A stretch of DNA of 64,000 nt from Chiloscyllium plagiosum (GCF_004010195.1 NC_057755.1:8905306-8969305); one strand, 5' to 3'; counted from the first letter of the stretch, positions 1,271 through 36,485 are shown. Notes: generated from the letters alone by a model not told the origin. Made by a program: numbers and translations.

Positions 1271-1281
1271 ACAGCAAAAGC

Positions 1282-2460: not shown

Positions 2461-2469
2461 GGTTTATCA

Positions 2470-11036: not shown

Positions 11037-12993
11037 GGATGGTCAGGGGATCTGCTCACTCTGATTGCGGGCTCTGTGCAAATCACACCAGTGCCAAGTA
11101 CCATGCATGCATAAATAAGCATGCATAAATAAAGGCGTCTTGGTGACGGCAAATCGACGTCTGTGCAGGTATTTATTTGGCGACGAGATTGCCATCAATG
11201 TAAAAGTGCCTACCAGCTGAAATCCAACTGGACGTCAACCATGCAATTCAAATGGCTTTGTCATTCGAAGATTTGGCAAATGGAGCATATCAGTGGACAA
11301 TCTCACCAGGCCAACTGGTCTTTGGGGACATCACTCGAGTGAATATAATTGCATTGCCTCAGTACATAACCTGAGCAGGTGCACTCCAGGTCGGCTCACA
11401 CCAAAACCCCAAAACTAAGGCAAACCTCGGCCAAGCCATAAATAGTTTCTTCAGGATTGGAGCCAGCAAGACTTGCAGTTCCTGCTGATATGCGTACTTG
11501 TGACAATGAAAGAGTCCCAATAGCCTTAAATGAGTAATAGAGCTGTTAGGCCAGGAGAGTGCACAGCCCGGAAAGCGCACCTATAGCTAACCTGCAACAG
11601 TTAAAGTCTTTGCAACATCCAAATCAGAACGAATAAAAATAAACTTCTGGTTAAATGGTCACCTGTTTCTAATGGAGGTAGATACCGGTACAGCTATATC
11701 AGTGATTGCAGAACCAATCTTTAACAAAGTTCGCTTGGGTTTCTAACACTTAAGTTTGAGTAAGGTTTCGGCTAGAGTGAGAATCTATCCCGGGGAGCCA
11801 TTCAAGATTAAGGGAACAACTTCGCTTCCGATCTCGTCTGAGAAGCAATGGATATTGCGGATGACCATTTAAAGTGGTTAAAGTTCATTCGTCAAACGCT
11901 GTGATGATGATTGTAAGGCTATGAGCATCATCCGCTGAACATGAACTCCCGAAAGTATTGGACACGGACAATGGGATGCCATTTTCCAGCAGGGAGTTTG
12001 GAAATTTTCTGAAGTCAAATAGCATTTGACATGTTCAGACGGCATGTTCAGACAGCTCCATACCGTCCATTGTCCAATGTATTGGCGGAAAGACAGTCCA
12101 AACATTGAAGGCAAGCTTGAAGATGTTGCTTGGCAGCTTCACTGGATACCAAACTACCTCGGGTCTTGTCTGATTATTGTATCACCACTTACACAAAAAC
12201 AGGCATCGCTCCAGCAGAGTTCCCAATGAGGAGAAGAATGTGCACCAGAAGTTTAAACTAGTTATTCTAAGACCGGGGGAGGGGTAGTAGAAATAGCATC
12301 AAGAACACTAACAACAAGGCATGTACCTCCACTGAGGGAGAGAGGATGCTTTCATAAGCGGGCAAACTTTGGTGTCAAAACTACAAAATGTCACTGCATG
12401 GGAACGAGGTGAGGTCAGCCCACATGATTTTCAGATGTCTAGATGAGGTGGACCTGATCAAACATGTAGATCATATGAAAACTGCTCCCTCTAAAACGGG
12501 GCAGAAGCAAAATATACTTGTTCCCCTCAGAAAAGCCAGGATGGCTGTCCGAAACCATGGGTTATCCCTTTTTAAACACATTCGAATGCATGGCAGATTC
12601 TGAATTGGACGCAGCTTCAATAGCGTGATAGCCTCAAGAAGAGGAGGAAACTCTCCCGTGACACTCTGGCGGCAAGAGATGGTTACGGTCCAGTATGTGT
12701 CACCAGTGTCCGAGACAGAGTGGGAGGAACCACACCTGAGGTGACAACGTTGCAGTAGACGTTACAAGAGAAACTGCATGTGTCCATCCCCGGATTTGAT
12801 GGGGGAGTAATGTCATCATTGGAACGAGGGCCAAGTTTGATCGCACTGACTACGAGATCCTTGACTGAGACTGTCAACCTGGGCAAAACAGGGAGCCCTG
12901 GATAACAGAGTTAAACTGGGGATTGTGTCTGCCGAGTACCTGCCCCTCTTCAGCAGTGACGTTGACAATGTTGCCTCTTTTTAACTGGTTCTA

Positions 12994-13043
<50 letters not shown>

Positions 13044-13170
13044 GAAAAAAAAAGGTCTCCTCCCTCTGTGCACTGGCTTTGAACTGGCTGGTTGGAGCCC
13101 ATGTACTGTGCAATTGCAAATAAAGAGTAACTTGGTGTATGGATACTGGTCTCCGTGCATTTTTTTTTCA
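11037..13170 (+). mobile_element. Internally deleted Gypsy LTR retrotransposon (copy 1): 3' half of 5' LTR, PBS, gag/protease/integrase remnants, PPT and 3' LTR (12811-13170)
   Basis: PBS TGGCGACGAG at 11178, protease MEVDTGTAISVI (~11670-11710), integrase HVQTAPYRPLSN (~12045-12080), PPT gggggag before TGT at 12811, LTR ending TTCA at 13170. Confidence 0.85.
12922..13053 (+). mobile_element. Short A-tailed insert with (CT)n(CA)n inside the 3' LTR at the TATA region
   Basis: Absent from the empty LTR at 34422-34657. Ends in agaaaaaaaaa immediately before the LTR R-like region. Confidence 0.55.
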
Positions 13171-14634
13171 GTGTAAAAGGAATACATTCCATTGTTATGA
13201 ATGAGAATTGATTGAAAATCTGAACTGGCATAAAAGAGAACAGGTATTGTGTGCTGGCAGATTGCATCTGCCGGGTGCCTCAATGGAAGAATTGAAAAAC
13301 ACAACTCTTTTTAATCGTTTACAGGAGCACATAATATCAGGTCAGATTCTTTGCGCAATGATGCAGGCATTGTGGTTGGGCCAGGATTGATAGCACGGCC
13401 TTAGTTGTCCCTTCTAGCTGGAGAATTGCTGCTAACTGTTCATAGCTGGAAGCTGATCCACAACAACCTGAGGGAGGTAATTCCAGGAACTTGACCGAGT
13501 GACAGTGAAGGAACAGGAGCATATTTCCTATTCGAGATGGTGAAACATTTGGAGGAGAATGTGTCGAGGACGATGTTCCCATTTATCTCTGTATTTGTCT
13601 GTCTGGAAGTGGTCACGTGTTTGAAGGTTCTGACTAAGGATCTGTGATCAATTTCTGCAATGTATCTTGTAGCTGGTACACACTACTGTCATTGAGAGTG
13701 AGTGATGGAGTGTATAAATGATTGTGGATGTTGATACAATCAAGCGGGTTGCTTTGTCGTCGATAGTGTCAAGAATTTAGTTTATAATTAGTGTCAGTGC
13801 TCAGTATTTCTTTCACAGCGAATATTCGTGCTGACTCTCAGTGTTAGGGGAATTTCTCAGATATTTTCATGTATGTGACCATCCACTGTGTGCCCTGAAA
13901 TAAACAGGAGGAAGTAACAACCAGAATCACAATTGTGGACAGGAACTGAAACCTAAACTGTCATTTTATAACAGCTTACACTAAACAAAATGCAAGGCAC
14001 ACACCCAAAGAAGGAGATTCAGGCATGTTGTCAACGATGGGCAGTCAGAGATAGTATATAACTATGGGAACATCCGAATAAGTTTTGTGTTTTTTTTCAG
14101 GAAGCAAGGCCAGAGACTGAATGTTGTGGAAAAGAGCTTCGCACATTACATATTCTCATCCCAGGTACTAATTTTGACAGGAAAAACAGATTCCAGAATG
14201 ACAGCAATTTGGAAGATTCCAACTTTATTTTTTTGCATTCTGTGATGGTCAGTCACTGCACATGGTCACATGAGGTTGTCACTCACCTTTCAACATAACA
14301 ATGTAAACTTATTGATGACATAATAAAAAGCTTTAAATGCACTAAAACTGGGAAAGATTTTCACATGGTACACAGAAGCAAATATTCAGTGTTTTGAACA
14401 GTAATATCCTTTTAAGATAATCAATCACTGTGACTTATTATTCGAAATACAATTCATTAATTTTTGCGCAACTGATTATTTCCAATTTCCTTGGCCAAGA
14501 ATCATCTTTACAATCCTAAGTACATGACTTCTTTTCAATTAATGCAGCCTGGGAAACTCCACATGTTCCTTCAACCTGTAGATCCTGTCGTAAGACTGGA
14601 AATACAGCTTGAAATAGCAGTCAGTTCTGTATGG

Positions 14635-15539
14635 TTATTTGTACAGTTTAACAATTCGAGCAAAAGGATATTTCACTCCATTGATTAACTCCTCTCTGAA
14701 TTTCGTTTGTGTTAGAGCGTATATGCAAGTGTTTGTGCACGAACTCAGAAGTCGTAGCATGAATCCAATTTCTTGAAAGATAAATATTGGATGGTTCAAT
14801 GTCTTGTCTTTATAATTATAGTTTATTACTTGCCAGTTGAAAGAGTGTACGACATACATCATCCACAACAGTATAAAATTACCAGACAATGCAAAGAGCA
14901 AGATGATGGATTTTCTCCGGTTTACCACCTCTGGATCAGTGTTATTCTGTACATTTCCGTGGATCTGAAGGCGACAGCGGATGCGGTTAGCTGTTATAAT
15001 ATTCCTGACAGTCAGAGCATTGAATACCGATATCAATACAATTGGAAGCAATGGTGTAAGTATACTGTCAATCCATTCATATATTTTCCAAAATAATGAT
15101 GTATAATAGTCTGATTTTGTGATGCAAAACCATGGTACATTGTCAATAACAAAGGAAGGAATAAATGCAAAATACCAAGTGGTTGACTGCAAACAGCTGA
15201 CTATGCTCACAGACACTATAACCATTAATGCAGTTCTCGTATTGCAATATCTTGCTCTTAGCTTTTGGCAACAAATTGCTACAAACCGATCAAATGTGAA
15301 AGCAACTGTGAACCAAACTGAACAGTCCAGGACTGCAAGGAACATGGCAATTCTCAAGGCACACACAGGAGTGATGAATAAGAAATTAACTGGGAAATAA
15401 AGATTGTTAAGTCGGTCCAGTAATATATTAAGGATGACGAGAAGCAGATCTGCTGTAAACATTGCCAACAAATACCGAGTGATGCATTTGGAGAGCCCAC
15501 AGTTGCCTCGATTCAAGATAAAAATTCCCACTAAATTAA
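14635..15539 (-). CDS. GPR139/GPR142-like class A orphan GPCR, gene 1, coding exon 2 (TM1 end to C-terminus)
   Basis: Open frame with seven-TM hydrophobic pattern, LAMFTADLL (TM2), FTFDRFVAIC (TM3) and SSCTNTCIY (TM7). Acceptor ttttctttcag at 15540+, phase 1. Confidence 0.95.
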
Positions 15540-15768
15540 CTGAAAGAAAAATGAAGAAAGGTACACCCCTGCATGACCAGAGTCACAGCAAAAAAAATCA
15601 CCATTATATGTCTGCTAAATCACACCATTTGCCTCTGATTAATATATTCACTCACTTACATAATGCATGGTGAAAAGTTACAATGCAAACAAACCATCAT
15701 GAAAGAAAGACGTATGGTGAACCAATGGACAAACTGAATAAATGAACGAATAAATGAGAAATAAATAG

Positions 15769-16215
15769 TGTTATGAACGAAAAGTTCAGCTTTTCTCTGG
15801 TTTGGTTTGCTTTTAAGAGGCTGTCAGGTGTGAAGCTGCTAAAATCAACGAAGTGAGTCCAGGGTGATCATCCTCTTTATGTGGGTCCATTGCAGTAAGA
15901 CTCTCGGTTTGATTTTATCTTACGTGCCAAGTGGTGTTTATAGAGATTGTGGCACATATTTGGAACAGCACCGTTAAATTTGGGTAATCTGTTGGGTTTT
16001 CAGAATAGGTTGAGTTATTCTCCATTCCATTCCCTTTTACAGTGTTTCAATTTTACATCTTGCAAATTAATTCTATTTTGTATAAAACTCGGTGGTTGGG
16101 CCAACTGCATCAGATCTGAAGTATCCACTCCATACCTGCTTAAAAGAACGAGCAAAGTTAATATCCAGGTTTATTTCTTGAAAGGTTTTGAGAGTTTCTG
16201 TCCTGGTCCATAACA
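15769..16215 (+). mobile_element. Probable solo LTR of a second family, in the gene 1 intron
   Basis: Inverted termini TGTTATG...CATAACA, absent from the paralogous intron, with related sequence around 42600-44080. No clean TSD. Confidence 0.5.
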
Positions 16216-16769
16216 GATTGGTTACTTTGGATTCCCATTCGACGTATTAATTTGTCAAATATAATCCAAAAGCTGCGAGCATCACTCATGCTGTTTGGAC
16301 TCCAGAAAATTTTGGAAACTAGGTTACTGAAAGTATTTGAAGTAGAGATCGATACATTTTTGAAATATCATGGAGTTGTGAGTTATGTGGATCTGGAACG
16401 AAGGAAGAATTTTTACTTGAGGCAGATGAGCCATGATCTTACTGAACGGCCGACAGACTTGAGGATAACTTGCTTCTGCTTCTGTTTTCTAGGTTCTTAT
16501 ATCATACCAGGATTTTTTGAACATAATAGAAGTGTAAAAATTCAAACCTTGGAGATGACTAACATTAGAGGAAGAACTTCAAAAGGAATCAGAAAAATTA
16601 ACTTTATGCACCATGGTCTTTGATCTTTGAACTATTGAAAACTGGTTAAGAACAGAAGAATGCAGAACTACAATAATAAGACATTGAGGACCATGTCCAG
16701 AAATATATCCTTTGATGCAGGGAGGACAAATAGACAAAGGTGTTACCGAAACCAAACAACTGTTTGGGG

Positions 16770-17120
16770 TTTGCATGGTGGCTCATTGGTTAGCACTGCT
16801 GTTTCACAGCGCCACGTACCTGAGGTTAATGCCACCCTCGGGCAACTGTTTGTGGAGTTCTTATATTCTCCTCCTGTCTGCGTGTGTTTCGTCTGAGTGC
16901 TGCAGTTCCCTATCACAGTCCAAAGATGTGAAGATTAGTTGGATTGGCCCTGGCAATTTGTCCCATTGTATCTAATGATGTGCAGGCCAGATAGGTTAGC
17001 TATGGGAAATGCAAAAATTGTGGGAATAGGGTAGGGTGGACCATGGGAATTGATTAGATACTCTGAGGAGGATTCATGTGAACTCAATGCGCCGAGAATT
17101 CCACACGTAAGGATGCTATG
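16770..17120 (+). mobile_element. Old HE1-type SINE (pre-dates the duplication; counterpart at 37505-37875)
   Basis: gcatggtggctcattggttagcactgc head and V-domain, with flanks matching the copy in the gene 2 intron. Confidence 0.8.
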
Positions 17121-18034
17121 AACCGTTCTGTAGAAGGAAATTCAGGGAATATAATAGTTTTGAAATGTTAGAAGTGATGAGAAACAATGATCATTCGCAC
17201 AGAATCTGTTATCCTGCTCGTCCATCTTGACAAGAGAATTTTTATTTGAAAAAGTGATGTTTTATATTACACAAATGAACTTTATCACTACTCCAGAAGA
17301 AATTGAAGACCACATTTAACATAGCCGTGCAAAACAATGTTGGAATAAAAGTCTGAACAAACACTGTAACACGATCAGATATTTAATAGCTTCGATACGT
17401 TTTCCAAACCAACCTGTTCAGAGATGACATGACACGCCTCTGAAGCAAGTGTTACTTGAACCTGTACCTCCCTGCTCCACAGGTCGCGATGAATACTATC
17501 AATACAACAGAGTTGACTGTTTCTGGGAATTTATCTGGGAGCCAATGTAACTCACCGCTTTGAAATTGCAACATCCATATTGAAGACGTACATACAGTGT
17601 AATTACGCTGCGTAACTATGCTGCGTAATTATTTATTCAAGCCCACAATAGACAGACCCAATGGCAGCTATCATTGTACGGAAAGAACCCGGTGCTGCTA
17701 GTCTAATGGTTCGGGATTGAAGTTATTTGGCATTTCTGTGTGTAATAATGCAGGACAATATTTTGCATCTTCTGCCAGTCACTGCTCTTTGAAAAATTGT
17801 CAAAAAAAACACGAAAAAGACCACAGGACAGATCGATGACCAGGAATCACTAAAATATGTTTCTATACGACCACTTGCCAGAAAATTATTGCAAGCATCA
17901 CAAAACAAATGAGCTTAGATCGAACTATGTGGAAAGTGTGACCTCCCAACATTTGTAATTAAAGTCTCATTTAGTCATTACTTTCATGTACTCATTAGTA
18001 GACATTTAACATCTTCCACAGAATGTCGTGAGCA

Positions 18035-18580
18035 GTTTTGGGTTCTGTGTCTAAGAAAGGGTGTGTTGAACTTGAAGGGGTTCAGCGGAGGTTCATAAGA
18101 ATGATCCTGGGAATGAAGGGTTTTTCATATGACGAGTGGTTGTGGACCTTGGGTCTGTACGCAATAGGGTTTAGAAATACGAATGTGAATCTGATTGTAA
18201 CGTGCAGAATATTGAGAGATTTGGATAGAATTGACGTGGAGAAGATGTCGATCCTCCAAGGACACAATCGGGTCTAAGGGCACAGCCTCGGTGTGAAGGG
18301 ATGTCCCTTTAGAAGTGAGATGAGGAGGAATTTCTTCAGCCAGAGGATAGTGAATCTGTGAAAGTCATTGCCCTAGAAAGGCTATGGAGACCAAGTCACT
18401 GAGTGTATTGAGGAAGGAGATAGTTTTGTTTTTCAAGAATTAGGGGATCAAGGGTTACAGGGAGAAGGCAGGAAAATGGGATTAAGAAACACGAACATGT
18501 CAGACACGATTGAATGGTGGAGCAAGTTCGTTGGGCCGAATGGTTTAATTCTGCTCCTATGTCTTATCTCCTTATGTTTT
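18035..18580 (+). mobile_element. CR1/HER1-type LINE 3' fragment
   Basis: LEGVQRRFIRMILGMKGFSYDE...FFSQRIVNL, then a 3' UTR with a short repeat tail. Counterpart starts at ~39700. Confidence 0.85.
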
Positions 18581-19039
18581 TATGGACAAGTAGTGATTGA
18601 TACTTGATCCACACAATTGTGAGGCAACTAACATCTTCAGCAAAAAAGATTCCAACCACCGTCCTTTGATATTCAATGACATTGCTATCATAGAATCTAC
18701 CAGTATTCATACTCTGGGGATTACCATTGACCGAACCAGCCCTGGCTTAGCCGTATAGGTATTGTTACTATAACAGCAGCTCAGAGGTTCAGAATCCTGC
18801 CGTGAAAATCTCACCTTCTGACTCGTCAAACCTGTATCACCATCTCTAAAGTGCAAGTCAGGAGTGTGAGGGTATACAGCCACTTGCCTGGATGGGTGCA
18901 GCTCCAACAACACTCAAGAAACTCAAAACTATTCAGGACCTTCGAAAATTCTGAAGAAAACTCATACCGGACTCAAAAACCTATCTTTATTTTTCTCTCC
19001 ACATAAACTGTCAGATCCGCTGAGTTAATCTAACGTTTC

Positions 19040-20050
19040 TCGAAATGGAGAAAGGTGACCAGTGGCATTGCACAGGAATCAGTGCTGGGGCTATTGTTGT
19101 ATCTGATATGCATAAATGATCTGGAAGAGGGCAAGTTTGCAGATGATAGGAAGATTGGTGGAGTAGCATAAAGCAAAGGGGTTTGCCAAAGAATACAGAA
19201 GATAGACTGGATTTTGGGTTGAAAAGTAGCAGATGGAGTTCAATCCAGGCAAATGTGAGACATTGGGAAGTCTAATTCTAGACGGAATTATCCAGTAAAC
19301 GGAAGAGCCATGAGAATAGTTGATGAGCAGAGAGATCTGGGAGTTCAGATCCTTTGTACCCTGAATGTGGCTGCACAGGTGGATAAAGTGGTCAAGAAGG
19401 CATAGGGTATGCCTGCCTTCATCGGACGGGTTATTGAGTAAAAGAGCTGGCAGGCCATGTTAAAACTGTGCAAGTTTTTGTTTGACCGCATTTAGAACAC
19501 TGTATACAGTTCAGGTCGCCACATTCCCAAAAGGATGTGGCCAGTTTGGAGACGGTGCAGAAAAGATTTATGAGGATGTTGCCTGGTATGGAAGGTGCCA
19601 GCTATGAAGAAAGGTTGAGTAGGCTAGGATTGTTTTCATTAGAAAAAAGGAGCCTGGGGTGGGGGTGGGGGGGGGGGGGGGGACCTAAATGAGGTCTGCA
19701 AAATCATGAAAAGTATAGACAGAGTAGATGGAGAAAATAGCTTTTTCCCAGAGTAAAGGATTCAATGACGAGAGGTCATGCTTTCAAGGTGAGAGGTGAA
19801 AAGTTTGAGGGGGATATACGCGGCAAGTACTTTACACAAAGGATGGTAGGTGCCTGGAACGCGTTACCAGCAGGGGTAGTAGAGGCATGCACGGTAGTTT
19901 CATTTAAGATGCATCTGGACAGATGCATGAGAAGGTGGGGAGCAGAGGGGTATACATGCTTAGGAATTGGGTAACAGCTTTAGACAGTGGGTTTGGATCG
20001 GCTCAGGCTTGGAGGGTCGAATGGCCTGTTCCTGGGCTGTAACTTTACTT
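19040..20050 (+). mobile_element. CR1/HER1-type LINE 3' fragment
   Basis: KFADD motif region and TRGHAFKVRGEKF...FTQRMVGAWNALP. Confidence 0.9.
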
Positions 20051-21044
20051 TATTCATCTCTTTGTTGTTTGTTTACTTTGCTTATTGCAGATATCCGGTA
20101 TCCGCCGTAGCTTGCATTTATTCCATGATGTGTCAGTTTACTTGTTTTTCACCACATCCACAAACCATCAATCTGACGACTACCCACTCCCCCACCCGCC
20201 ACCCCGTCTCCCGGCCAATGCCACTCAGTGAAATCAGGCTATACCATCTAAAAAGACACATTGTAGCACCTCAACAAGGTCCCTGTCATCCTCACAGCCG
20301 CTACTGTCTGGAAGCAGAGGATAACTGCGATTGAAATCACGTGCAAATTTCATTCAAGCCACTCACCTTCCTGGCTTGGAAACACATAATCGTTCCTTGA
20401 GTGTTGCTGGATCAGTTAAGAGACATTTAGACAGCTTCATGGTTCGAAAATGTCAAGTATATGAAAATGGGACCAGTTCAGTTTAGCAATCCTGGTCAGC
20501 GTGAATGAGTTGCAACGAAGAGTCTGTTTCCGTGCTGTATGACTCTATGTACACTTACACCAAATGGTCTGCAGTGGTTTGAGAAGGCACCTTCTGAAGT
20601 GTAACTTGGGATGGGGAATACATGCTGACTCAGCCTGTCCTCTAATCTAATCTAATCTAATCTAAAAATTTATAAATAAACCAACTTCCGCAGACGAATG
20701 CAAACAACAATGAAATTGTTGACCTCCGTTCAGCAATGAACTACTAAAGAAACCACTGGAAACACAAAGGTTAGGAATAGCCAAAGTCAGGGAAATATGC
20801 CAAATTTCAATGAAGAATGAAGGAGTTGAGTCAAACAGGTTGAATGCAAACATAAAAACTAAAAGAATTGTGGATGTGGTAAATCAGAAACAAAAACAGA
20901 AGTTGCCGGGAAATGTTCTGAGGAAGACTAACCAAACCGAAATGTTAACACTGAGTTCTCTTCCCAGAAGCTACCCGACCTGCTGAATTTTCCCAATTGC
21001 TTCTGTTTCTGTTCACACAAACATAACTGCAATTAAGGACTTAC

Positions 21045-21114
21045 CAATAATACCAACACCTGCAAGTATCGGGTAATAAATACTTGCTGTCTGTAAGATT
21101 GCTGAGTATCCCAT
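21045..21114 (-). CDS. GPCR gene 1, coding exon 1 (MGYSAILQTASIYYPILAGVGII)
   Basis: ATG at 21114, 70 nt, donor GTAAGT at 21044. Phase 1 joins exon 2 to give ...GII-V-NLVGIFIL and completes TM1. Total 975 nt = 324 aa plus stop. Confidence 0.9.
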
Positions 21115-22060
21115 TCTGTCCCAATCAGGCCTGTCTGTTGCTGTTTAGTCAATGGACCTGTCTGTCTAAATACAAAGAAAATTGTCAAGACAGCCTAATT
21201 TTATTTGGAAGCTAAATGTCCAGTGAGAAAATAAATCTGGTTGAATCGCTAATTGCACAAGTTGCAGTAATCCGAATAAGAAGTAAATTAACCATTTTCC
21301 TTTGAGGGTTATTACGTAGTGGAATATATTTTGAAAAATAAAAAGACACTAATTTCCTGAGAACTTGAATTAGATTTTATTGTCTTGTGTACTGAAGTGC
21401 AAATGTACATGAGTGCAGTGAAAATTGTACAATGGGAACATTGCGAGGTCCATCTTACGTGCAATGGTATATCCGAACAAAATTTCAGGTACAATTTAGA
21501 AACATAATGTTCAAAGCTAAAACTGGAAAGACGTGATTTGAAATCTTTTCTAAAGACAGAACAATGCACCTAGCAATAAAGCTATTCTGTACTAGACTGA
21601 GATGCACGTTTCCCTTCATTATTGCTTTTTAAAATAAATTGAATACAGGTACAGGTTTTCCAGTGAGGGGAATCTCACACCTATGCCTAATTGGTCCCTT
21701 TCATTTCTGATGATAGAAAAGAGCTCTGCATTTCTAAGAGGAAATCCCATTCAGGGTTATCCGCAGGAATGTGTAACTGTAATTCCATCCTGATCTTTCC
21801 TGGCTAGAATTGTATTACAATGCATAAAGTCAGTGTTATGTGACAGTGCGGTTAGAGTAAGGTGTCAGGTGGGTAATGACAGACAACAGCAGATTAATTG
21901 AGTGCAAGGTGGTGATGGTGCCAAGGTAGCAGGTATGTAGGATGCTGACTGGTAAGGGGTTAGAATACCAAGTGGGATATGGGTAGTGTAGTGATTGAGT
22001 TCCCGGATTGGGGATGCTAACCTGGTCCAATCAGGGAGCCCTTGCTCAAAGTTGCAAATA

Positions 22061-22156
22061 CGATATCTTTGCCTTTTCTTTATTGTTTATTGAGATTCTT
22101 TGTTTTCTGGATTTTCTTTTCGTTTTTGCTTATTTGAAGCAAAAAAGGAAAACAAC
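22061..22156 (+). mobile_element. Short T-rich, A-tailed insert at the TATA position of the 5' LTR
   Basis: Lies between ...gttgcaaata and aaacagcaagtcggggttctgttcac; absent from the empty LTR. Confidence 0.6.
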
Positions 22157-23042
22157 AAACAGCAAGTCGGGGTTCTGTTCACTCTGAGAACTGGCTCTGA
22201 GGAAACCAGACCAGTGTCAGGTACTTGACATGTGTAAAAAAGGGTGACTTGGTAATAGGATACCGACCTCTGTGTAGGTATTTCATTGGCGACGAGCATG
22301 AGATTAATGATGTATCCAGACAAAAACGATTACGAGATGAAATCTAACTTGACCTCAAATGTTGTCATTCGAAATGCATCAAGTGGAGCATGTGAGTTGC
22401 ACGGCATGCCGATGGAAGAGGACACTCTCACCAGGCAAACTGACCTTGGGGGATACCTCTCGAGTGAAAGCAATTGCATCACCTCAGAACATAATCCTGA
22501 GTAGATATACTCCAGGTCAGCTCATACCAATAGCCTCAAAGCAAAACCAAACTTCGGTCAAACTGTGGACATTTCCTTCAGGATCAGAGCCAGCAAACCA
22601 TTGCAGTTGTTGCCAAGATGCGGGCTTGTGATTGTGAAAGAGTCCCACTCGACCTGAAGTGTATAAAAGTACTGACATGCCGGAATCCAGGTGTGTGCAC
22701 TCCCTAAAAAGCCCACAGACAGTTGGCTTGGAACACTTACATTGTTCAGCAGCATCCAAATCAGAACCAATCAAAATAAACATCTGTTAAATGGTCAACT
22801 GGTACTACTGGAGGTAGATAACAGCACAGATGTATCAGTGATTGCAGAACCAATCTTTAAAAAATTTTGCTCGGTACCCCAACTCTTAAGTTTGTGTAAG
22901 AGTTCTATTCCAGGGAATCTTTTCAGATTAAGTGGAGAACTTCAATTCTGTATGAGAAGCAGCTGGTTCAGTTTTCAACTGATACACTTTTATGTGCTCA
23001 AACTTTTCCAATTAGAAAATAGCTGCTTTTGCTTCACTCATT

Positions 23043-23335
23043 GTGGGCGGCACGGTGGCTCAGTGGTGAGCACTGGTGCCTCACAGTGCCAGAGACCCGG
23101 GTTCAATTCCCGCCTCAGGCGACTGTTTGTGTGGAGTTTGCACATTCTCCCATTATCTGCGTGGGTTTCCTCCCACAATCCAAAAATGTACAGTCTAGGT
23201 GAATTGGCAATGCTAAATTGACCATAGTGTTAGTTGAAGGAGTAAATGTAGGGGAATGGGTTTGGGTGGGTTGCGGATCGGTGTGGGTGGTTGGGCCGCA
23301 GGGCCTGTTTCCACACTATAAGTAATCTAATCATT
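23043..23335 (+). mobile_element. HE1-type V-SINE
   Basis: gggcggcacggtggctcagtggtgagcac head, gggttcaattccc B box and taatctaatc tail. Confidence 0.9.
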
Positions 23336-23339
23336 TGCG

Positions 23340-23657
23340 GGATGAGGGTGTCGCTGGATAACCAGTATCCATGCCCATCCCAGAGGGAAGTTAAGAGCCA
23401 ATCACATTGCTCTGGGACTGGAGTCACATGTAGGCCAGACCAGCTAAGGATAACAGTTTCCTTCCCTGAAGGACAAGAGTGAACCAGATGGGTTTCTTCC
23501 AACATTTGTTAATGGATTCCTGGTCATTAAAGACATTTGATTCCAGATTTTTATTGAATTCAAATTCAAAGACTGCATTCGAACCTTGGTCCGATAATGT
23601 TACCTAGGTCTTTTGGGTAACAGTCCATCGATAATACCACTACGTCATTACCTCCCC
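23340..23657 (-). mobile_element. tRNA-derived SINE, probably Deu-domain (SacSINE1-like)
   Basis: Reverse strand has A/B-box-like tgacgtagtggt...ggttcgaatgc and the central cccatctggttcact...tggtctggcctacatgtgactccag. Family name is from memory. Confidence 0.55.
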
Positions 23658-24364
23658 GATAGAGTGAATTCCAGACTTGAGTGAAGACTGAATGAAAGAC
23701 CCAGAGCTTTTCCATAATGTCTAGGGATTCCCAAAGCATCGAAGGCCAACTTTTATGTTGATCAGGAAGCAATTCCACGATTCTGCCAGGCTCACCCAGT
23801 GCAATTTAACCCATAGTGAAAAGCAGTGTCAGAAAATCAAAAGGTTGGAAAGGGAAGGAATCATTAACCCAGTACAGTTTGCAGAATGGGCAGCACCAGG
23901 CACAACGATTGTGAAACCTCATTGGTCAGTTTGCCATTTGGAGACTTTAAACAAACTGTAAACCAAATCTCACAACTGGATCATTACCCAATCCCTCATT
24001 ATAGAGAAGCCAACTGTATTATGGGACGCAAGAGGGATTGTCCTGAGTAAAGATCTCCACCAGCCATTGGCTGAACACCAACGGGATCATCCAGGGATTT
24101 CCATAATAATCATGCTGTGAGACGTTATGCCTGGCGGCCAGGATTGGATACCAACATAGCCACAGTGAAGCAGTGCCCAGAGTGCCATCAAGTACAAAAA
24201 TTCCCACCAACGGCTGCTTTACAAACACATGTGAATGGCTGGGTAAACCATGGACTTGATTATATGTGGACTATACCGGTACATTAATGGGCTCAATGTT
24301 CTTGGTTACTGTGGATGCTCATTGAAAGTGTTTGGACCTGCAGAGAATTCATTCGGCAAACTAG

Positions 24365-27300
24365 TAAGTCGGTGGGGTGGGGTGGGTGTGAGTGGGACCC
24401 AGGGAGATAATGAGGATTGAGATCAATCAGAGACTGATGCAGTTGAGAAAAAGGAGAGTCAAACAGTCGGAGCAGGAAGGGGCAAAGCAGAGAACAAGGT
24501 AGGACTGATAAATTAAATTGCATGTATTTCAAAGCAAGAGGCCTAACAGGGAAGGCAGATGAACTCAGGGCATGTTTAAGTACATGGGACTGGAATATCA
24601 TAGCATTACAGAAACATGGCACAGGGATGGACAGGACTGCCAGCTTAATGTTCAAAGATAAAAATACTCCAGGAAGGACAGAAAGGGAGGCAAGAGAGAG
24701 GGAGGATCCTGTTTTTGATAAAGGATAGTATTACAGCTGCATTGAGCAAGGATATTCCTGGGAATACATCCAGGGACGGTATTGTGGAACTGAGAATAAA
24801 AAAAGCGATGATAACATTATTGGGATTGTACTACGGACCCCTTAATAGACAAAGGGAAATTAAGAAACAAATTTGTAAGAAGATCTCAGTTATCTGTAAG
24901 AATAATAGGGTGTTATGGTAAGGGATTTTAACTTTCCAAACATAGACTGAGACTATCATAGTGTTAAAGGTTGAGATAGATGGGAATTTGTTACGTGTGT
25001 ACAAGGAAATTGTCTGATTGAGTATGTGGACGAGAAGTTGCAAAACTTGACCTACGCTTGGGAAATATGGCAGGCCAGGTGACTGAGGTATCAGTGGGGT
25101 AGCACTTTGTTTTGGGGGCCAACGATTATAACTCTGTTTGTTTTAAAATAGAGATGGGAAAGTATAGACCAAATCCAAAAGCTGAAGTTCTAAATTGGAG
25201 GAAGGCCAACTTTGACATTATTAGGCAAGAACTTTCAAAAGCTGATGGGGGGGCGGGGGGGGGGGGGGGGTGGATCAAATGTTCGGAGGTAAACAACTGG
25301 AAAATGGGAAGCCTTCAGAAATGGGGTAACGAGAGTCCAGAGAAAATATATTCCTGTTAGGGAGAAAGGAAAGCCTGATAGGCAAACGGATTGCTCGATG
25401 ACTGAAGACATTCAGGGAATGGTTAAGAAAAGGAAGAAAGTATATGTCAGGTATAGACGGATAGATTGAGTGAATCCTCTGAAGCGTATAAAGGCAGTAG
25501 GCGCTTAAGAGAGAAATCAAGAGGGCAAAAATGGGACATGCGATTGCTTTGGTCAATAGAGTTAAGGAGAATCCAAAGGGGTTTACAAATATATTAAGGG
25601 CAAAACGGTAAGTAGGGAGATAATACGGCCCCTCAAAGATCAGCAAGACGGCATTTGTGTGGAGCTGCACGAGAAGGTGGAGGTACTTTACAAATACTTT
25701 GCATTAGTAAGTACTGTGGAAAAGGATATGAAAGATGTAGAATTTGGGGAAACAGATGGTGACATCTTGAAAATTGTCCATATTACAGAGGAAGGCGTGT
25801 TCGATGTGTTGAAACTCACAAAAGTAGATAAATCCCCAGGACCTAATCGGGTGTACTCTCGATCACTGTGGGAAGCTAGGGAAGAGATTGCTGGGCCGCT
25901 TACTGAGATATTTTTATTATCAGGTGAGGTGCCAGAAGACTGGAGGTTGGCTAACGTGGTGTCATTGTTTAAGAAAGATGGTGAGGACAAGCCTGGGAAC
26001 GATAGACCAGTGAGCCTGACGTCAGTGGTGCGGAAGTTATTGGAGGGAATACTGAGGGACAGGATGTACATGTATTTAGAAAGAAAAGAATTGATTAAGG
26101 TTGCTCAACACGGCTTTGTGCGTGAGAAGACATGTCTCACAAAATTGACTGATTCTTTTTGAAGTAGTAACAAAGAGGATTGATGAGGGCAGAGCAGTAG
26201 ATGCGATCTATATGCACTTCAGTAAGGAGTTCGATACGTTTCCCCATGGGAGGCTGGTTAGCAAGGTTCGATCTCATGGAATTCAGGGGAAACTCGCCAT
26301 TTGGCTGCAGAACAGGGTCAAAGGTAGAAGGCAGAGGTAGTGGTGGAGGGTTGTTTCTTTCAGACTGGAGGCCTGTGACCAGAGGAGTCCTGCAAGGATC
26401 AGTACTGGGTCCATTACTTTTCATCATTTATATAAATGATTGGGATGTGAGCATAAGAGGTATGGTTAGTAAGTTTGCAGGTGACACCAAAACTGGAGGT
26501 GCAGTGGACAGCGAAGAAGATTGCCTCAATTTACAATGGGATCTTGATCAGCTGAATCATTGGGCTGAGAGGTAGCAGATGGAATTTAACACAGATAAAT
26601 GTGAGGTGCTGCATTTTGGAAAAGCAATCCTTAGCAGGACTTAGACACTTAATGTTAAATTCCTAGGGAGTATTGCTAAACAAAGAGACTTTGGAGTGCA
26701 GGTTCCTAGCTCCTTGAAAGTGGAGTCGCAGGTAGATAGGAGAGTGAAGAAGGCGTTTGGTATGCTTTGCTTTATTGGTCAAAGTATTGAGTACAGGAGT
26801 TGGGAGGTCATGTTGTGGCTGTACAGGACATTGGTTAGGCCACGGTTGGAATGTTGCGTCCAATTCTGGTCTCTTTCCTACCGGAAGGATGTTGTGAAGC
26901 TTGAAAAGGTTCAGAAACGAGTTACAAGTGTTGGAGGATTTGAGCTATCGGTAGAGTTTGAATTGGCAACGTCTGTTTTCCCTGGCGCGTAGGAGGCCAA
27001 GGGGTGACCTTATAGAAGTTTATAAAATCATGAGCGACATGGATAAGTATAAACAAAGTCTTTTCCCTGTTGTAGAGGTCTCTAGAACTAGAGGGCATAG
27101 GTTTAGTGTGAGAAGGAAAAGATATAAAAGATATCTAAGGGGCAATCTTTCCACGCAGAGTGTGGTGTGTGTATGGAATGAGCTGCCAGTGGCAGTTTTG
27201 GAGGCGAGTATCATTGCAACATTTAAAAGACATCTGGATGGGTATATGAATAGGAACGATTTAGAGGGATATATGCCGGGTGCTGGCAGGTGGGATGAGG

Positions 27301-27390
27301 TTGGGTTGGGATAACTAGTCGGCAAGGACAAGTCAGACCGACGGGTCTGCTTCCGTGCTGCATACATCTCAGACTCTATGACTCTATGAT
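24365..27390 (+). mobile_element. CR1/HER1-type LINE, nearly complete degenerate ORF2
   Basis: APE start (YFKARGLTGKADEL), KSPGPNRVY, RPVSLTSVV, GVLQGSVLGPLLF, KFAGDTK, and a (gactctat)n tail. Confidence 0.93.
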
Positions 27391-29571
27391 GATTGCAAAG
27401 CTGTGAGCATCATCCGTGATAAACAGGCTTCTGAAAGTATTGGTCACATACAACGGGACAGTATTTTCAAGCAAAGCTTTCCAGTATTTCCTGACATTGA
27501 ATGGCATTTGGCATGTTCATACAACCCCCTAACATCCACTGTCCAATGGTCTGGTGGAAAAATCAGTCCTAATATTGAAGGCAGGTTTAAAGAAACAGCT
27601 AACAGCTTCAGTCGATACCAGAGATCTCCAAGGTCTTGCTCGATTCTCGGACCATCCCTCACACAACAACAGGCATAACTCGAGCAGAGTTGCAGATGGG
27701 GAGAAGCCTCCGCACAAGGTTCAACTTGATATTCATGGACCTGCTGGGATGATGAACAGCATCATAAACACCAATACCAGCACATGTCTCCTCTAAGAAA
27801 GATAGATAGTTTACCTCAGTGGCGAAGTTTGATGTCGAAACCATATAAATAGCTGTGGATGAGTATGAGGTGAGGTCAATGTAATATCAGATTCTGGGGC
27901 TTAAAGACTTTGGGAAAGTGAGGTGGTCCTGAACAAACGTTTAGTTCATAACGAAGCTGCTACTTTGCATAGAGGACAGGAGCAATACACACTTGTCCCT
28001 CAAAACGGCCAGAAAGGCTGTCAGAAACCATGTGTTCTCCCTCTCTGTCTCGTGTCGAGGAAATTTCCGAGGCTCAGATGGATGCAGCCTCGACACATGC
28101 ACACACAGATAAGGGGGCTGAGTGACGTGGGGGAATATCAGCGGAACTGTTGTCCAGGGATCATGTAGGAGATAAATTAAAGAAAAGAGAAAGTGAAAAA
28201 AGGTAATAAAACCAACTATGTCCTCACTCTCGGCACTGGCTTTGAGCTGCATTGTTTGGAGCTCATGTGCAGTGTGCTTGGAAATAAATAGTGACTTTGC
28301 GAAGCGATACCAGCCTTTGCCCAGAACTTTCAGTGTTAAAAGAAAGCACTACATTATTACGAACGAGAATTTATTGGAAATCTAATTTGGAATGAAAGAA
28401 AACAGTCACTTGTTCCTTGGCAGATTGAGTCTGCCGTGTGCGACAAGGGTGGAAGCTGAACCCACAGTTGCTTTCAATCAGTTACATGAGCACAAATTAC
28501 CACGTCAGATTAATTGCTTTCAGCAATAATGCAGCCATTGTGGCTTTTCAGCGTTCATAGTCTGTCCTTAGATGCTCCTTGTAGGTGGCACAGTGCTGCT
28601 TCTTTTCGACGTGCTGGTAGACTGATCCACAAAGCCGTTAGCGAGGCAATTCCAGCATTTGGAGCAAGTGTCAGTGAAGGAACAGCAATTCATTTCCCAG
28701 TCGAAATGGTGAGTGATTTGGAGGGGAACATGCAGGATGTGGTGTTCCCGTATATATGCTGCCCTTGTCCAGATGAAAGTGGTCTCGTATTGGAATGTGC
28801 TGTCTCAGGAGTTTTCGTGAATTTCTGCAGTGTATCTGGTGCATACTGCTGTCACAGAGTGTCAGTTTTGGAGCGGATGGATGTTTCTGGATGTTGTAAC
28901 AATCAAGCGGGTTGCTTTATCTGATGGTGTCAAAAACGTTGCTTATACTTAGTGTCAGTGCTCAGTATTTTTTTCACAGTGAATCTTGGTGCTGAGTCGC
29001 AACATTCAGGGAACTGCTGAGATACTTTGACGTGCATGACCATCCACGGTATATTGTAATTAATGTGCTCAGGAATAAACAGGATAAAGTAATAACAAGT
29101 CACAGCTACAGACAGGAACTTAAACCTAAATTGGCATTATATGACAGATTGAACAAACAAACTTTAATGCATTACAAAGGACGGAGTTTCTGGAGTGTTG
29201 TCAATGTATTTTACATGCATAGTTTCTCCGATGTATAGTGTAAGTTGGTACACAATAAGGTAACAACTGGGCAAGTTGTTTTTTCTTTGGAAGCAAGGCC
29301 AGAGACTGAATATGAATTGTGGAAAAGATCTTTGTATCTTACATATACTCATCCAAACCGCTAATGATGCCAGTAAAAGTAGATTTCAGAATGACAGAAG
29401 TTTGGAAGATATTCAGTTTAATCTTTGCACTTCGTGGTAGTCAATCACTGAACATGTTCACACGACGTTGTCACTCAGCTTTCAGCATAAGAAGGGGAAC
29501 TGATTGATGACACAAAGCAAAGCATTAAATATATTGTTGTGGTTCTGGTGGCCAAGCTGGAAATTTTTTGT

Positions 29572-29614
29572 TGCAAACGTTTCGTCCCCTGTCTAGGTGA
29601 CATCCTCAGTGCTT
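29572..29614 (-). ncRNA. Minimal hammerhead ribozyme motif in the Penelope left arm
   Basis: Reverse strand reads CTGAGGA-tgtcacctagacaggggac-GAAACGTTTG. Confidence 0.65.
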
Positions 29615-30735
29615 GGGAGCCTCCTCTGAAGCGCTTCTGTGGTGTTTCCTCCGGCATTTATAGTGGCCTGTCCCTGCCGCTTCCGCTTGACAGTTTCAGC
29701 TGTCCGCTGTAGTGGCTGGTATATTGGGTCCAGGTCGATGTGTTTGTTAATGGAGTTTTGGATGAGTGCCATGCCTCTAGAAATTCCCTGGCTGTTCTCT
29801 GTCTGGCTTGCCCTATGATAGTAGTGTTGTCCCAGTCGAATTCATGTTGCTTGTCGTCTGCGTGTGTGGCTGCTAAGGATATCTGATCGGGGCGTTTCGT
29901 GGCTAGTTGATGTTCATGGATCCGGTACGTTAGCTGTCTTCCTGTTTCTCCTATATAGTGTTTTGTGCAGTCCTTGCATGGGATTTTGTACACTACATTA
30001 GTTTTGCTCATGCTGGGTATGGGTCCTTCGTTCTGGTGAGTTGTTGTCTGAGGTTGGCTGTTGGTTTGTGTGCTGTTATAAGTCCTAGTGGTCGCAGTAG
30101 TCTGGCTGTCAGTTCTGAAGTGCTCCTGATGTATGGTAGTGTGGCTAGTCCTCTGGGTTGTGGAACGACAACGGAACGAGGACATGGCGCAACCAAAAGG
30201 ATTAGCCACACTACCATACATCAGGAGCATTTCAGAACTGACAGCCAGACAACTGCGACCACTAGAACTTATAACAGCACACAAACCAACATCCACCCTC
30301 AGATAACAACTCACGAGAACGAAGGACCCCATACCCAGCATGAGCAAAACTAATGTAGTGTACAAAATCCCATGCAAGGACTGCACAAACACTATATAGG
30401 AGAAACAGGAAGACAGCTAATGATCCGGATCCATGAACATCAACTAGCCACGAAACGTCACGACCAGCTATCCTTAGCAGCCACACACGCAGACGACAAA
30501 CAACATGAATTCGATTGGGACAACACTACCATTATAGGGCAACCAAACAAAGAACAGCCAGGGAATTCCTAGAAGCATGGCACTCATCCAAAACTCCATA
30601 AACAAACACATCGAGCTGGACCCAATATACTAGCCACTACAGCGGACAGCTGAAACTGACAACCGGAAGCGGCAGGGACAGGCCACTATAAATGCTGGAG
30701 GAAACACCACAGAAGCGCTTCACAGGAGGCTCCCA

Positions 30736-30778
30736 AGGACTGAGGATGTCACCTAGACAGGGGACGAAACGTTTGCAA
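30736..30778 (+). ncRNA. Minimal hammerhead ribozyme motif in the Penelope right arm
   Basis: CTGAGGA (30740-30746), stem II gtcacct/aggggac, GAAAC with a palindromic stem III. Confidence 0.65.
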
Positions 30779-31152
30779 CAAAAGTTTCCAGCTCGACGAA
30801 CAGAACCACAACAACGAGCACCCGAGCTACAAATCTTCACCCAAACATTAAATACATTAGAATTTCGAAAAGGTCTTCACATGGAACAGAAAAGCAAAGA
30901 CTCAGCCCTTTAAAAAGTAATAGCTATGAGAGATTCCCAATCTCAGTGAAATATTATTCGAAATGCAATTTGTTATTTTTATACAGAAGTGGTTACTTCC
31001 CATTTTCGTGGTCGAGAGACGTTTTTCCAATTCTGAGGACATGGACTTCTTTTCAGTTAATGCAGCCAAGGAAATTCCAAAAGCTCTTTCAAATTGGAGA
31101 TCTTGTTCTAATACTGAAAGTAGATCTCCATATACAGGTCAGACCTGTATAC

Positions 31153-32057
31153 TTATTTGCACAGTTTAATAATTCGAATAAATGGATATTTTACACCATT
31201 GATTAACTCCTCTCTGAATTTAGTTTGTGTTAGAGCGTATATGCAAGTGTTGGTGCACGAATTCATAAGCTGTAGCATGAATCCAATTTCTTGAAGAACA
31301 AAAATTGGATCACTGAACGTCTTGTCTTGATAATTATAGTTTGTTACTTGCCAGTTGAAAGAGTGTATGGCATATGTCATCCACAACAGTATAAAATTAG
31401 CAGACAAGGCAAAGAGCAGGATGATGGATTTTCTCCTGTTTACCACCTCTGGATCACTATTATTCTGTCCATTTCCGTGGATCTGAAGGCGACAGCGGAT
31501 GCGGTTAGCTGTTAAAATATTCCTAACTGTCAAAGCATTGAATACCAAAATCAGCACAATTGGAATCAATGGTGTAATTATACTGTCAACCCATTCATAC
31601 ACATTCCAGAATAATGATGTTTTGTAGTCTGATTTTATGATGCAGAACCATGGTACATTGTCAATAACAACTGAAGGAATAAATATAAAATACCAAGCAA
31701 CTGACCGCAAACAGCTGACCACACTCACAGTTACTATAACAACTAATGCAGTTCTCATATTGCAACATCTTGCTCTTAGCTTTTGGCAAGAAATTGCTAT
31801 AAACCGATCAAATGTGAAAGCAACTGTGAACCAAACTGAACAGTCTATGGCAGCATCGAACATAACAACTTTCAAGGCACACACAGGAGTGATGAATAAG
31901 AAATTAACTGGGAAATAAAGATTGTTAATTCGGTGAAGTAAGACATTAAGGATGACGAGAAGTAGATCTGCTGTCGACATTGCCAACAAATAGCGAGTGA
32001 TGCATTTGGAGAGCCCACAATTGCCTCGATTCAGGATCACAATTCCTACTACATTAA
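31153..32057 (-). CDS. GPR139/GPR142-like GPCR, gene 2, coding exon 2 (exon 1 not in the assembled sequence)
   Basis: Intact 905-nt exon, same length and phase as gene 1, with acceptor ttttcttacag. About 50 differences in ~294 aa against gene 1 by manual count. Confidence 0.92.
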
Positions 32058-33957
32058 CTGTAAGAAAAATAAAGAAATGTTCACGTCTTCACGATTCGAG
32101 ACACCGTATAAACATCACATATCTGCTAAAACATGTATCTGCTAAATTAGACCAATTTCATCAGACTAATATATTAACTCAATTACACGATGCATAGTGA
32201 AAAGTTACAATGGAATTATGTACTCAAGCAAACCAGAATGAAATACAGACATGTTGGAAAGCAATACAGAACAGAGTAAATCAACAAATACTTCAGATTA
32301 AAAATCATAAAGAATGAAATGTTTTAATGCAAGTATGTCATACTAAGAGATTGATTGAAATGTTTAAAAGATTTTTCATACTTATTAACCTATTAATGGA
32401 AGAAAAATCAAAGCAAAATGGTATTAAGCACAAGGTATTTCACATCAGGCACTGAGTACATGAGCACACAACAATATATATTTTATGAAGTGGAACAGGC
32501 ATGGTTGAATATGAGAACTGGGTTGTTGGACTAACCTGTCATTGATCGTGGTCACATGTTTTCTCATGCATGCTAGTCATAAATTTGTAGGGGCTGATAA
32601 TGAGGGGAGCAAGTACTCGTATATGAGCAGGCATAAGACCATATGAGAATCGTTTTGGAACTTGGTGAATATAGTACTCTAGTAAAACAGTAACACAGTA
32701 TTTGGAAGGTGAGATTACAACCCGATTGACTGACAACACATCCACACATATATCCTCCTCCTCCACCAACAACGCTCTGAAGCAACAGTGTGTACTATCT
32801 AGAAAATTCCCTGCAAAAGTTCACCAAAGATTCACAGACTTTACCAGCCACACCCACAAACACTTCCAGCCAGAAGAACAGGGCATCTGATACATGGGAG
32901 CATCGCGCCTTGCAAGTTCGCTCGGAGACACTCACCGTCCTGACTTGTTAATACATCACCGTTCCTTCACTATCACTGAATTACCAACATGAAGTTCCAT
33001 GCCCCAGGGCATTGTCGGTAAACCCACAGCAGTCAGACTGCATTAATGAAAAAAAGTGTCAACATCTTCTCAAGGGGCAACCAGGGACAGGCAATAAATG
33101 TTTGTCTGCCAGCTCACATCCCACACATGATAAAAGGAAGAGTCAAAATTCATAATTCAGGTGAATAGATTAATTTGTCTTCAGATCACTTGTGCCAGTT
33201 AGGTTAATTTTTATGGAGTTATATGAGCAGTAGTGTTTTGGGGCAGAATGATGAAAGCAATCACTGAACACCCGGAGTCCACTTCCAGCATCAAAGAGTT
33301 TATTGATGTTACGCTGGTGGGAGGAAGCCTCTAGGGTTCCAATAGCTTCTTCATTGGCAAAGGAAAGGCATAAACGTTTATACATTCATTTTATCCCACC
33401 ATTACAGACCATTCATATTATCAGTTTCTTATAGCCACGCCAAATCCAATTAGTCATGTAACTGGTCAGTAATGAACAGACTTATAGACAACCCTCTGTC
33501 TTCTCTGATGTCATGATATTTCCCAGATGCCCTTATCACTTTCCTTCAACCTCTCACGGTGCGTGCTGTGTATAACAACATTTCAATACTGCTGACGTTT
33601 GCACCTGAAGTTCACACCTCCCTGCAATAGTGTGGGAGCCCTCCATTCCTGCCCACAGGATTTTTAATGGAATCTCATTCATAGTTATTGAGTATTTTTT
33701 AGTGTTGTGTGCATATTTATACGAACCCTGCATTTCAAAGCATGGCACTATGAACATCTGGAAATCTACTTGTAATATCTCTCAGAATTTAAAGCAGCTG
33801 GTTAAGGAGTTTTTCGATCACTTCCTCAAGAGTGTCCTTCTCCAGCTGTGTATGCATCAACAACTGGGGCAGCATGTCTCTAAAAGACACTTTATGTATT
33901 ATTTTAACCTGCTACCTTGGATGTGATCTGTCGGAAAAACATGGTTTACTATAATAC

Positions 33958-34088
33958 TAAGGAGAAAGTGAGTTCTGCAGATGCTGGAGATCAGAGCTGA
34001 AAATGTGTTGCTGGAACTGCGCAGCAGGTCAGGCAGCATCCAGGGAACAGGAGAATCGACGTTTCGGGCAGAAGCCCTTTCTCAGGAA
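33958..34088 (-). mobile_element. Short Penelope-derived terminal fragment with a degenerate hammerhead
   Basis: Reverse strand reads cctgagaaagggcttctgcccgaaacgtcgattctcctg...tctccagcatctgcag; same family as 58449-58638. Confidence 0.7.
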
Positions 34089-34421
34089 AGGGCTTACTTT
34101 AATACTAAATCAAACAAACCTTGTGAAGTTGAAGGCCTGTCCCTTGAAGAGAGAGGGAATGCTGAACTGTATTGAGAGATTACACACAACTGTGTATATG
34201 ACCTTTTGTTTAATGTTCACTGTCAGAGTTAGAAAATAAATTGATGTAATTCTGTTTAATTTGAGAGTGAAATTTGCGAGTTCTCCATCACTCATATTTT
34301 AACAGATTACGAGGCAAGGCAAGCTTTTCTGTGGTTTTGTATTAATTAACAGAGGAGTTCGATTTCGGTGTCGGAACACATTCTATTTCTAAGTCAACTA
34401 CAAAATATGTGAGGTCATCTT

Positions 34422-34657
34422 TGTGACGACGGGAACATACTCAGCCAGGGAGACCTCACAGAATATGAGTTTCCTGATTGGGGCTGTTAACCTGGTCGAA
34501 TCAGGGAGCCCTGGCTGACATACATAAATTGGAAGATCAGGGGTTCTGTTGGCTGTCAGATCTGGCTCCAAGGAAGATGGACAAGTGCCATGTCCTATGC
34601 ACATGCAAAGAAAGGGTGACTTGGTGATGTGTTTCTGGCCTCTGCACAGTTATTTCA
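34422..34657 (+). mobile_element. Solo Gypsy LTR with an uninterrupted (empty) TATA region
   Basis: TG...TTTCA termini and 5-bp TSD atctt/aactt. Shares cctggtc.aatcagggagccctgg and aaagggtgacttggtga with the other LTRs. Confidence 0.85.
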
Positions 34658-34769
34658 AACTTGTGTTGGTTTCAGCCAAGGGCAGACCGCATTGTGGCAA
34701 AGCAAAAATACAATTGATCGCAACTGAAGAATTATCACTTCTTTCCAAAAGATTAATGAAAGAACCAAT

Positions 34770-35045
34770 TTATTGCAGTGTGGAAACAGGCCCTTCAGCC
34801 CAAAAAGCACAATCTACCCAGACCCATTCCCCTACATTTACCCCTTCACCTAACACTACGGGCAATTTAAAATGGCCAATTCACCCAACCTGCACGTTTT
34901 CAGACTGTGCGAGGAAACCGGAGCACCTGAAGGAAGCCCATGCAGACACGTGGAGAATGTGCAAATTCCACCCAGTCAGTCACCTGCGGCGAGAATTGAA
35001 CGCGGGTCTCTGGGGCTGTGAGGCAGCAGTGCTAACCAATGCGCT
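34770..35045 (-). mobile_element. HE1-type SINE
   Basis: gaggaaaccggagcacc...gtgaggcagcagtgctaacca pattern. Confidence 0.85.
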
Positions 35046-35394
35046 AACTGGGGTTGAGTCAAAAGTAATTTTCAGGCGACAGGTTTGGGAGCGAGCTTAT
35101 GTGGAGCCACACTGAGATTTAGAAGTAAGAAACAAATGCTGCTACGTTCACTTACATAAGATAATTTGTTTCATTTCATTGGGCAAATACTTGACCTCCA
35201 ACTGAAGTCTGAATCGTTTCAAATCAGAGTAAGCTTGCATCAATACAATTAGATTCAAAGAGAAAGTATAGAACATTGGGAATTCATTTTGCCTCTTATT
35301 TATAGAGGGTCGTTTCTGTTTAATAAGATACGTGCTGCTGTTCATAAAACTGTTTCTTGGAGTGAAACATCTTATGCTTTATGTTGCTTTTCAA

Positions 35395-36300: not shown

Positions 36301-36485
36301 TTTCTGCTTCAAGAGAATTTCTTCTCTCAGAGGGTAGTGAATATGAGGAATACACCGCCCAGAAAATTTCAGAATTCAAATCACTGAACGTGTTTGAGGC
36401 AGAGGTCGATATTTTGAAATATCAAGGAGTTGAGGGCTATGTGGTGGTGGAAGAGAAGAAGTGTTGAGACTTGGAGTAGATGGAG

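Follow-up and report, generated by a model that had tools for sequence, protein, structure and literature searches.

Inserts that sit at the same position in several LTRs raise the question of whether several retroposon families share one target or whether one lineage has left its pieces at a single old element. This question is posed by a window of 64,000 nucleotides from Chiloscyllium plagiosum (NC_057755.1:8905306-8969305, assembly GCF_004010195.1), the whole stretch of DNA analysed here. An earlier note, made from this sequence alone, held that independent LTR copies in the window carry different A-tailed inserts from several 5'-truncated families, which would support target specificity independently of a neighbouring tandem array. 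The observation is partly confirmed and the reading partly supported. The locus probably goes back to one old LTR element beside a receptor gene, both LTRs of which were struck at a TATA-proximal site by A-tailed retroposons, and to a tandem duplication of the block that holds it.

The Tx1 array and its target word

A Tx1-clade LINE and a second element, A, are arrayed in tandem over window positions 1-11031. The Tx1 copy that serves as reference for the inserts lies on the plus strand at 556-6152, its start being approximate, and was recognised by its reverse transcriptase (RT). Matches by tblastn cover 2703-5856, and the RT reading frame at 3525-4325 is identical in 156 of 264 positions (59%) to P0030, which bears the UniRef name Xenopus laevis transposon TX1 149 kDa protein. 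These matches begin at amino acids 204-229 of two full-length homologs, and most of the N-terminal APE endonuclease is undetected in the array copy.

A 13-base word follows the elements of the array at five junctions (494, 6153, 6273, 8535 and 11032), the first of them at 494-506 on the plus strand. The same word, regarded as the target word, begins exactly 12 bases past a shared U3 motif in the LTRs at 12811, 21987 and 34422, in agreement with the earlier statement that the inserts lie near the TATA position in one orientation. An exact scan for the U3 motif found no locus in either viral_contigs or metagenome_contigs.

The array has some irregular parts. The first Tx1 tail is separated from the Tx1 copy that follows by about 80-90 bp of LTR R-like sequence (window positions 494-585). 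This far exceeds the 13-base word of the other junctions and could have arisen as a long duplication or belong to a 5' end derived from an LTR. Positions 6072-6192 and 6193-6312 are a 121-bp tandem duplication (98%) of Tx1 tail plus junction, either very recent or an assembly duplicate. At window positions 296-300, the first Tx1 copy lacks a stretch matching 5698-5917 of the second; this stretch includes the part matched by the insert of the LTR at 12811-13170.

A duplicated block with one LTR element

Self-BLAST reveals a collinear duplicated block, approximately 11046-18219 against 22169-39867. Its alignments include 11046-11764 against 22169-22900 (69% over 764, E 1.4e-87), 11904-12569 against 27386-28042 (67%, E 1e-50) and 13058-14338 against 28221-29530 (70.5% over 1336, E 1.8e-168). 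Identities from the global aligner are inflated, with unrelated pairs reaching 61-67%, and the paralogy is therefore based on BLAST. The block is marked by a 7tm_1 receptor reading frame on the minus strand, found at 14635-15582 in unit 1 (Pfam PF00001, E 2.6e-15) and at 31153-32088 in unit 2 (PF00001, E 2e-17); the two frames are identical in 256 of 316 positions.

Because the block is duplicated, the LTR at 12811-13170, which is preceded by a purine-rich tract, and the R-U5 remnant at 28219-28332 are copies of one 3' LTR, in units 1 and 2, respectively. By the same token, the LTR at 21996-22285 is the unit-2 counterpart of the array-bearing 5' LTR of unit 1, in which R-U5 resumes past the array at 11032-11170. 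All of these lie on the plus strand, and the pairs of duplicates were identified by self-BLAST. The LTRs with inserts accordingly belong to a duplicated block and are not the independent copies that they had been taken for. Of the four LTRs under study, just the solo LTR at 34422-34657 (plus strand) was inserted separately; its 5-base flanks match in four of five positions. It had been described as empty, and so it is: it contains a single target word, at 34526, and reads of the LTR family bridge the same site with 25 letters, against 124 in the filled LTR of unit 2.

In the R region, comparison of 5' with 3' LTR gives scores of 61 and 51, whereas the duplicates score 98 and 104. Since 5' and 3' differ more than the duplicates do, the element may be a chimera or a recombinant of two LTR subfamilies. 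The differing R types are those at 13053-13170 and 28219-28332 (3') and those at 11032-11170 and 22158-22285 (5'). The host element may be Gypsy-like, to judge by eye from what we take to be protease, RT and integrase motifs. A comparison of its pol pieces with curated profiles gave no confirming match, only a sub-threshold one to Integrase_H2C2 (E 0.022).

Further features were seen in and around unit 2. A long inverted repeat at 29530-30848, present in this unit only, has arms at 29566-30160 and 30190-30783 that are 93-100% complementary. One arm appears to be a broken GIY-YIG-like stretch, which we take to suggest a Penelope-like element in inverted arrangement. The unit-2 alignment ends at an assembly gap of about 500 N (39871-40370). 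At about 41090-41990, there is a possible third 7tm_1 frame of a minus-strand, single-exon-like tandem cluster, seen by eye only, more distant and perhaps broken.

Tx1 pieces in the two 3' LTRs

The extra sequence reported for the unit-1 3' LTR is present and extends from about 12918 or 12922 to 13053. Its first part, 12918-12963 on the plus strand, matches the C-terminal coding end of Tx1 ORF2 (5736-5781) in 34 of 46 positions without gaps, a score reached by 0 of 300 shuffles; the piece is in sense orientation and in the reading frame of ORF2. Its core (12931-12963) matches ORF2 5749-5781 in 27 of 33 positions, likewise ungapped and on the sense strand, and none of 100 shuffles reached this score when the whole window was the reference, whereas 1 of 1000 did so when it was the Tx1 copy. 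The target word of this LTR (12913-12925) overlaps the 5' end of the piece. The rest of the insert (12964-13053, plus strand) is made up of a linker of about 30 bp, (CT)16 at 12996-13027, (CA)8 at 13028-13043, a G and A9 at 13045-13053. This part is probably a decayed and expanded Tx1 3' UTR, although the linker has no significant match in the Tx1 UTR (118 of 300 shuffles). A protein profile built from the ORF2 ends of four distant Tx1 elements recovered the array copy and missed the piece in the LTR. To read the insert as Tx1, at least two internal deletions have to be assumed.

In the unit-2 3' LTR, the Tx1-type sequence is a 3' tail (28093-28218, plus strand) that is joined directly to the internal region of the host element. 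It matches 6031-6153 of Tx1 in 84 of 133 positions (0 of 300 shuffles). Its end is A-rich (30 A in 47 bases); when this end is removed, 35 of 50 positions still match, with 1 of 500 shuffles as good when the array was the reference and 0 of 1000 when it was the Tx1 UTR, and the match to the tail of the other Tx1 copy is weaker (6 of 1000). Unit-1 similarity ends at 28091 and LTR similarity starts at about 28219-28221; relative to unit 1, about 300 bp are missing, comprising the end of the internal region and U3. The LTR remnant that had been thought to start at 28110 is consequently a Tx1 tail joined to R-U5, with no LTR start at that position.

Controls with real sequence bear on these matches. 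Against the Tx1 copy, the scores of the inserts were reached by none of 400 window pieces 63 bp long and by none of 300 that were 129 bp long. When the comparison was with the whole array, 13 of 300 pieces and 9 of 200 passed, and their coordinates are those of SINE copies that match the SINE at 7516-7834. Both matches are on the plus strand and fall inside the last 420 bp or so of Tx1, as those of 5'-truncated copies would. They are short and old, with identities of 74-82% in unit 1 and 63% in unit 2. On the strength of these DNA matches, which alone link them to the array copy, both inserts are assigned to the Tx1 lineage of the array. The earlier view that the inserts are unrelated to the Tx1 tail fails on the ORF2 match in one LTR and the 3'-tail match in the other. 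Two parts of the earlier reading are thus refuted: the independence of the LTR copies by the block duplication, and the lack of any Tx1 link in the 3' LTR inserts by these matches.

The two inserts would retain complementary parts of the Tx1 3' end. The sole shared part is an overlap of about 20 bp, in which the CA tract of unit 1 matches the segment of unit 2 in 17 of 20 positions (4 of 300 shuffles). The slightly preferred explanation is a single insertion that preceded the duplication, after which the two units lost different parts. Two separate insertions, the second with a deletion of the target, would explain the arrangement nearly as well. On the 3' sides of both inserts, the best target-duplication scores are 8, a chance level reached by 70 of 397 random scans.

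The insert of the unit-2 5' LTR

The unit-2 5' LTR (21996-22285) lacks the 5' part of U3; reads of its family join it at 21996 and leave it at 22285. The insert described for it is present, as 89 bp at 22068-22156 on the plus strand, while the similarity to the LTR family starts at 21996 rather than at 21987. The start of this similarity is abrupt, and 21996 is possibly a duplication breakpoint. The insert is T-rich and A-tailed, with 45 T in 68 bases followed by 14 A in 21. It is flanked on the plus strand by two decayed copies of a target duplication. The 5' copy (22056-22067) lies at +12 from the U3 motif and scores 8 at this fixed position, as did 79 of 5000 random positions; the 3' copy (22157-22168) abuts the R region and scores 9 (12 of 5000 random positions). 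Both words sit where a target duplication predicts them.

Reads matching 21900-22400 at 80% likeness were collected from the raw reads and contigs of the window species (species A) and from contigs of two related species (B and C); joints and ends were taken from the best 15 of 82 joints and the best 24 of 657 loose ends. In species A, raw depth is about 2000 over the U3 core and about 1000 over parts of R-U5, 1-20 over the insert and about 1 over the unique flank. Within the insert, it reaches about 20 on the T-rich core and falls to 1-5 toward the 3' end. The best-supported joint among the best 15 of 82 skips 22047-22170 in 72 reads. Family reads exit at 22046 and re-enter at 22171; the intervening sequence is 25 letters long in the reads and 124 in the window, the latter composed of 9 letters of U3, the first 12-base word, the 89-bp insert, the second 12-base word and 2 letters of R. 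The insert therefore lies outside the usual sequence of the LTR family. Among the matches listed, it is covered by one contig of species B (21916-22129) and three of species C (together 21983-22221); among the contigs listed for species A, none spans the whole insert. Some contigs of B and C have a purer A tail (22148, 22153, 22156) and, at 22061 and 22165, agree better with the target word; several such differences come from one contig each.

These data bear on the proposal that low-complexity sequence has expanded locally to give the inserts, or that they are regular components of LTR subfamilies. The CT/CA tract of the unit-1 3' LTR is an expanded microsatellite, the 89-bp insert is T-rich, and more than one type of R region occurs among the family reads, all of which would suit the proposal. 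At the 5' LTR, it is refuted by the family reads that skip the insert, by the target word at both junctions and by the presence of the insert in two other species. The question of whether the 89-bp sequence is a normal part of the LTR family is thus answered in the negative, its depth being 1-20 against about 1000-2000. At the two 3' LTRs, the non-repetitive parts match Tx1, and for unit 1 this match would be the sole argument against a normal LTR-subfamily part. For the inserts as a whole, the proposal is very improbable. The 89-bp sequence is an old, true A-tailed insertion at the site used by the array.

Several comparisons address the source of this insertion. Its best match in the array was equalled by 5 of 300 shuffles, and no significant match was found in the window (31 of 100), in the tails of the A1 (39 of 300) and A2 (175 of 300) copies, in the insert of the unit-1 3' LTR (153 of 300) or in the Tx1 segment of the unit-2 3' LTR (110 of 300). 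Reads on the T-rich core agree on three differences from the window (11 of 14 at 22093, 17 of 21 at 22098 and 11 of 14 at 22111). This agreement suggests a small parent family, although low complexity could give the same pattern. A second copy of the insert could also lie upstream of the window, for instance as a member of the array from before the duplication.

How many families, and why this site

The filled LTRs all trace back to a single element and its pair of LTRs, and two of the inserts are Tx1, perhaps from one event; the case for several families therefore comes down to the 89-bp insert. Repeated TATA-proximal use outside the array stands, whereas two of the three inserts that had been attributed to different families belong to the Tx1 lineage of the array. 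That several unrelated 5'-truncated families chose the site independently, in independent LTRs, is unlikely. The 89-bp insert does match neither Tx1 nor element A at significance, its T-rich-core reads hint at a small parent family, and the two 3' inserts overlap by only some 20 bp and could be two events. Against this, both 3' inserts match the Tx1 of the array, the filled LTRs are duplicates, and the sole LTR inserted separately is empty.

A second alternative dispenses with targeting. The endonuclease of L1-type elements cuts at TT/AAAA-like sites, and the TATA-like run followed by AAA might be no more than the best such site in a very abundant LTR. This generic hot spot would agree with the A/T-rich sequence of the site, the abundance of the LTR family, the use of the same site by the seemingly unrelated 89-bp insert and the empty site in most family reads. 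It is nevertheless improbable, for all events here fall on this site and none on the AATAAA-type signal of the same LTRs, and the word is repeated at five junctions of the array. Moreover, Tx1-clade elements often show target preference, according to the main text of PMC4494074. Two to three events, all at one site, in the same orientation and with none at the AATAAA-type signal, favour a preference. As support for specificity apart from the array, two or three old events at the site hold good, yet they lie in the two LTRs of one element.

The favoured history, one duplicated element struck in both LTRs, would begin with the insertion of an old Gypsy-like LTR retrotransposon beside the receptor gene, and the block would have been duplicated either after or before the strikes. 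The 3' LTR would have taken up a 5'-truncated Tx1, of which the unit-1 copy would retain the ORF2-end piece with an expanded CT/CA tract and the unit-2 copy the 3' tail. In unit 1, the 5' LTR would have gathered the Tx1 array; in unit 2, it would hold the 89-bp 3' end of a different retroposon, with a target duplication of about 12 bp. Target-primed reverse transcription would most likely account for these strikes, its enzyme step being part of established LINE biology. The Tx1 endonuclease would nick the LTR at the TATA-proximal word, where an A-tailed RNA would be primed, and early termination would yield 5'-truncated copies with a duplication of about 12-13 bp or a 5' deletion. The order of these events is a reconstruction, and Tx1 machinery may also have placed the 89-bp insert.

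Relation to known systems and significance

Both a Tx1 preference for LTRs and the sharing of a target by several families are already published for crocodilians, as the main text of PMC4494074 reports. The crocodilian families Tx1-8_Crp and Tx1-4_AMi prefer LTR retrotransposons and resemble the array Tx1 in this respect, but their hosts belong to a different lineage. The main text gives no position inside the LTR for them, and they may or may not use a TATA-proximal site (PMC4494074). A published form of several families sharing a target is found in crocodilian Tx1-Mar and SINEU, in which autonomous and non-autonomous families, several in all, occupy common fixed positions within Mariner, again on the main text of PMC4494074. 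Their target is a Mariner DNA transposon, whereas here it is an LTR and the second family is represented by one headless 89-bp piece. Tx1L of Xenopus laevis inserts into Tx1D, according to the same text (PMC4494074). It resembles the array Tx1 in the RT (the array frame and the X. laevis TX1 ORF2 protein are 59% identical) and in inserting into a mobile element; its target, however, is a non-autonomous piggyBac element instead of an LTR. The criterion for target preference stated there is that more than 20% of the copies of a family are flanked by the target (PMC4494074). The literature searched, the scope of which stopped short of Repbase and most subscription papers, yielded no title on a Tx1 family of sharks that targets LTRs.

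The locus illustrates how independent families can be mimicked by flanks that have been duplicated and by the decayed remains of a single element. The old insertions outside the array at the same LTR site add modest support to the view that local re-insertion is not the whole explanation of the array and that its site is a preferred target. As the 89-bp insert is common to three species, the site has long been in use. It is possible, if still doubtful, that this insert represents the 3' end of a further retroposon family, as yet undescribed, either a sister Tx1 or a non-autonomous partner, which homes to the TATA-proximal 13-base word, and that the site has been shared by several families since before species A, B and C separated. 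If so, the LTR promoter would be the seat of a long-lived multi-family targeting system, parallel to that of Tx1-Mar and SINEU.
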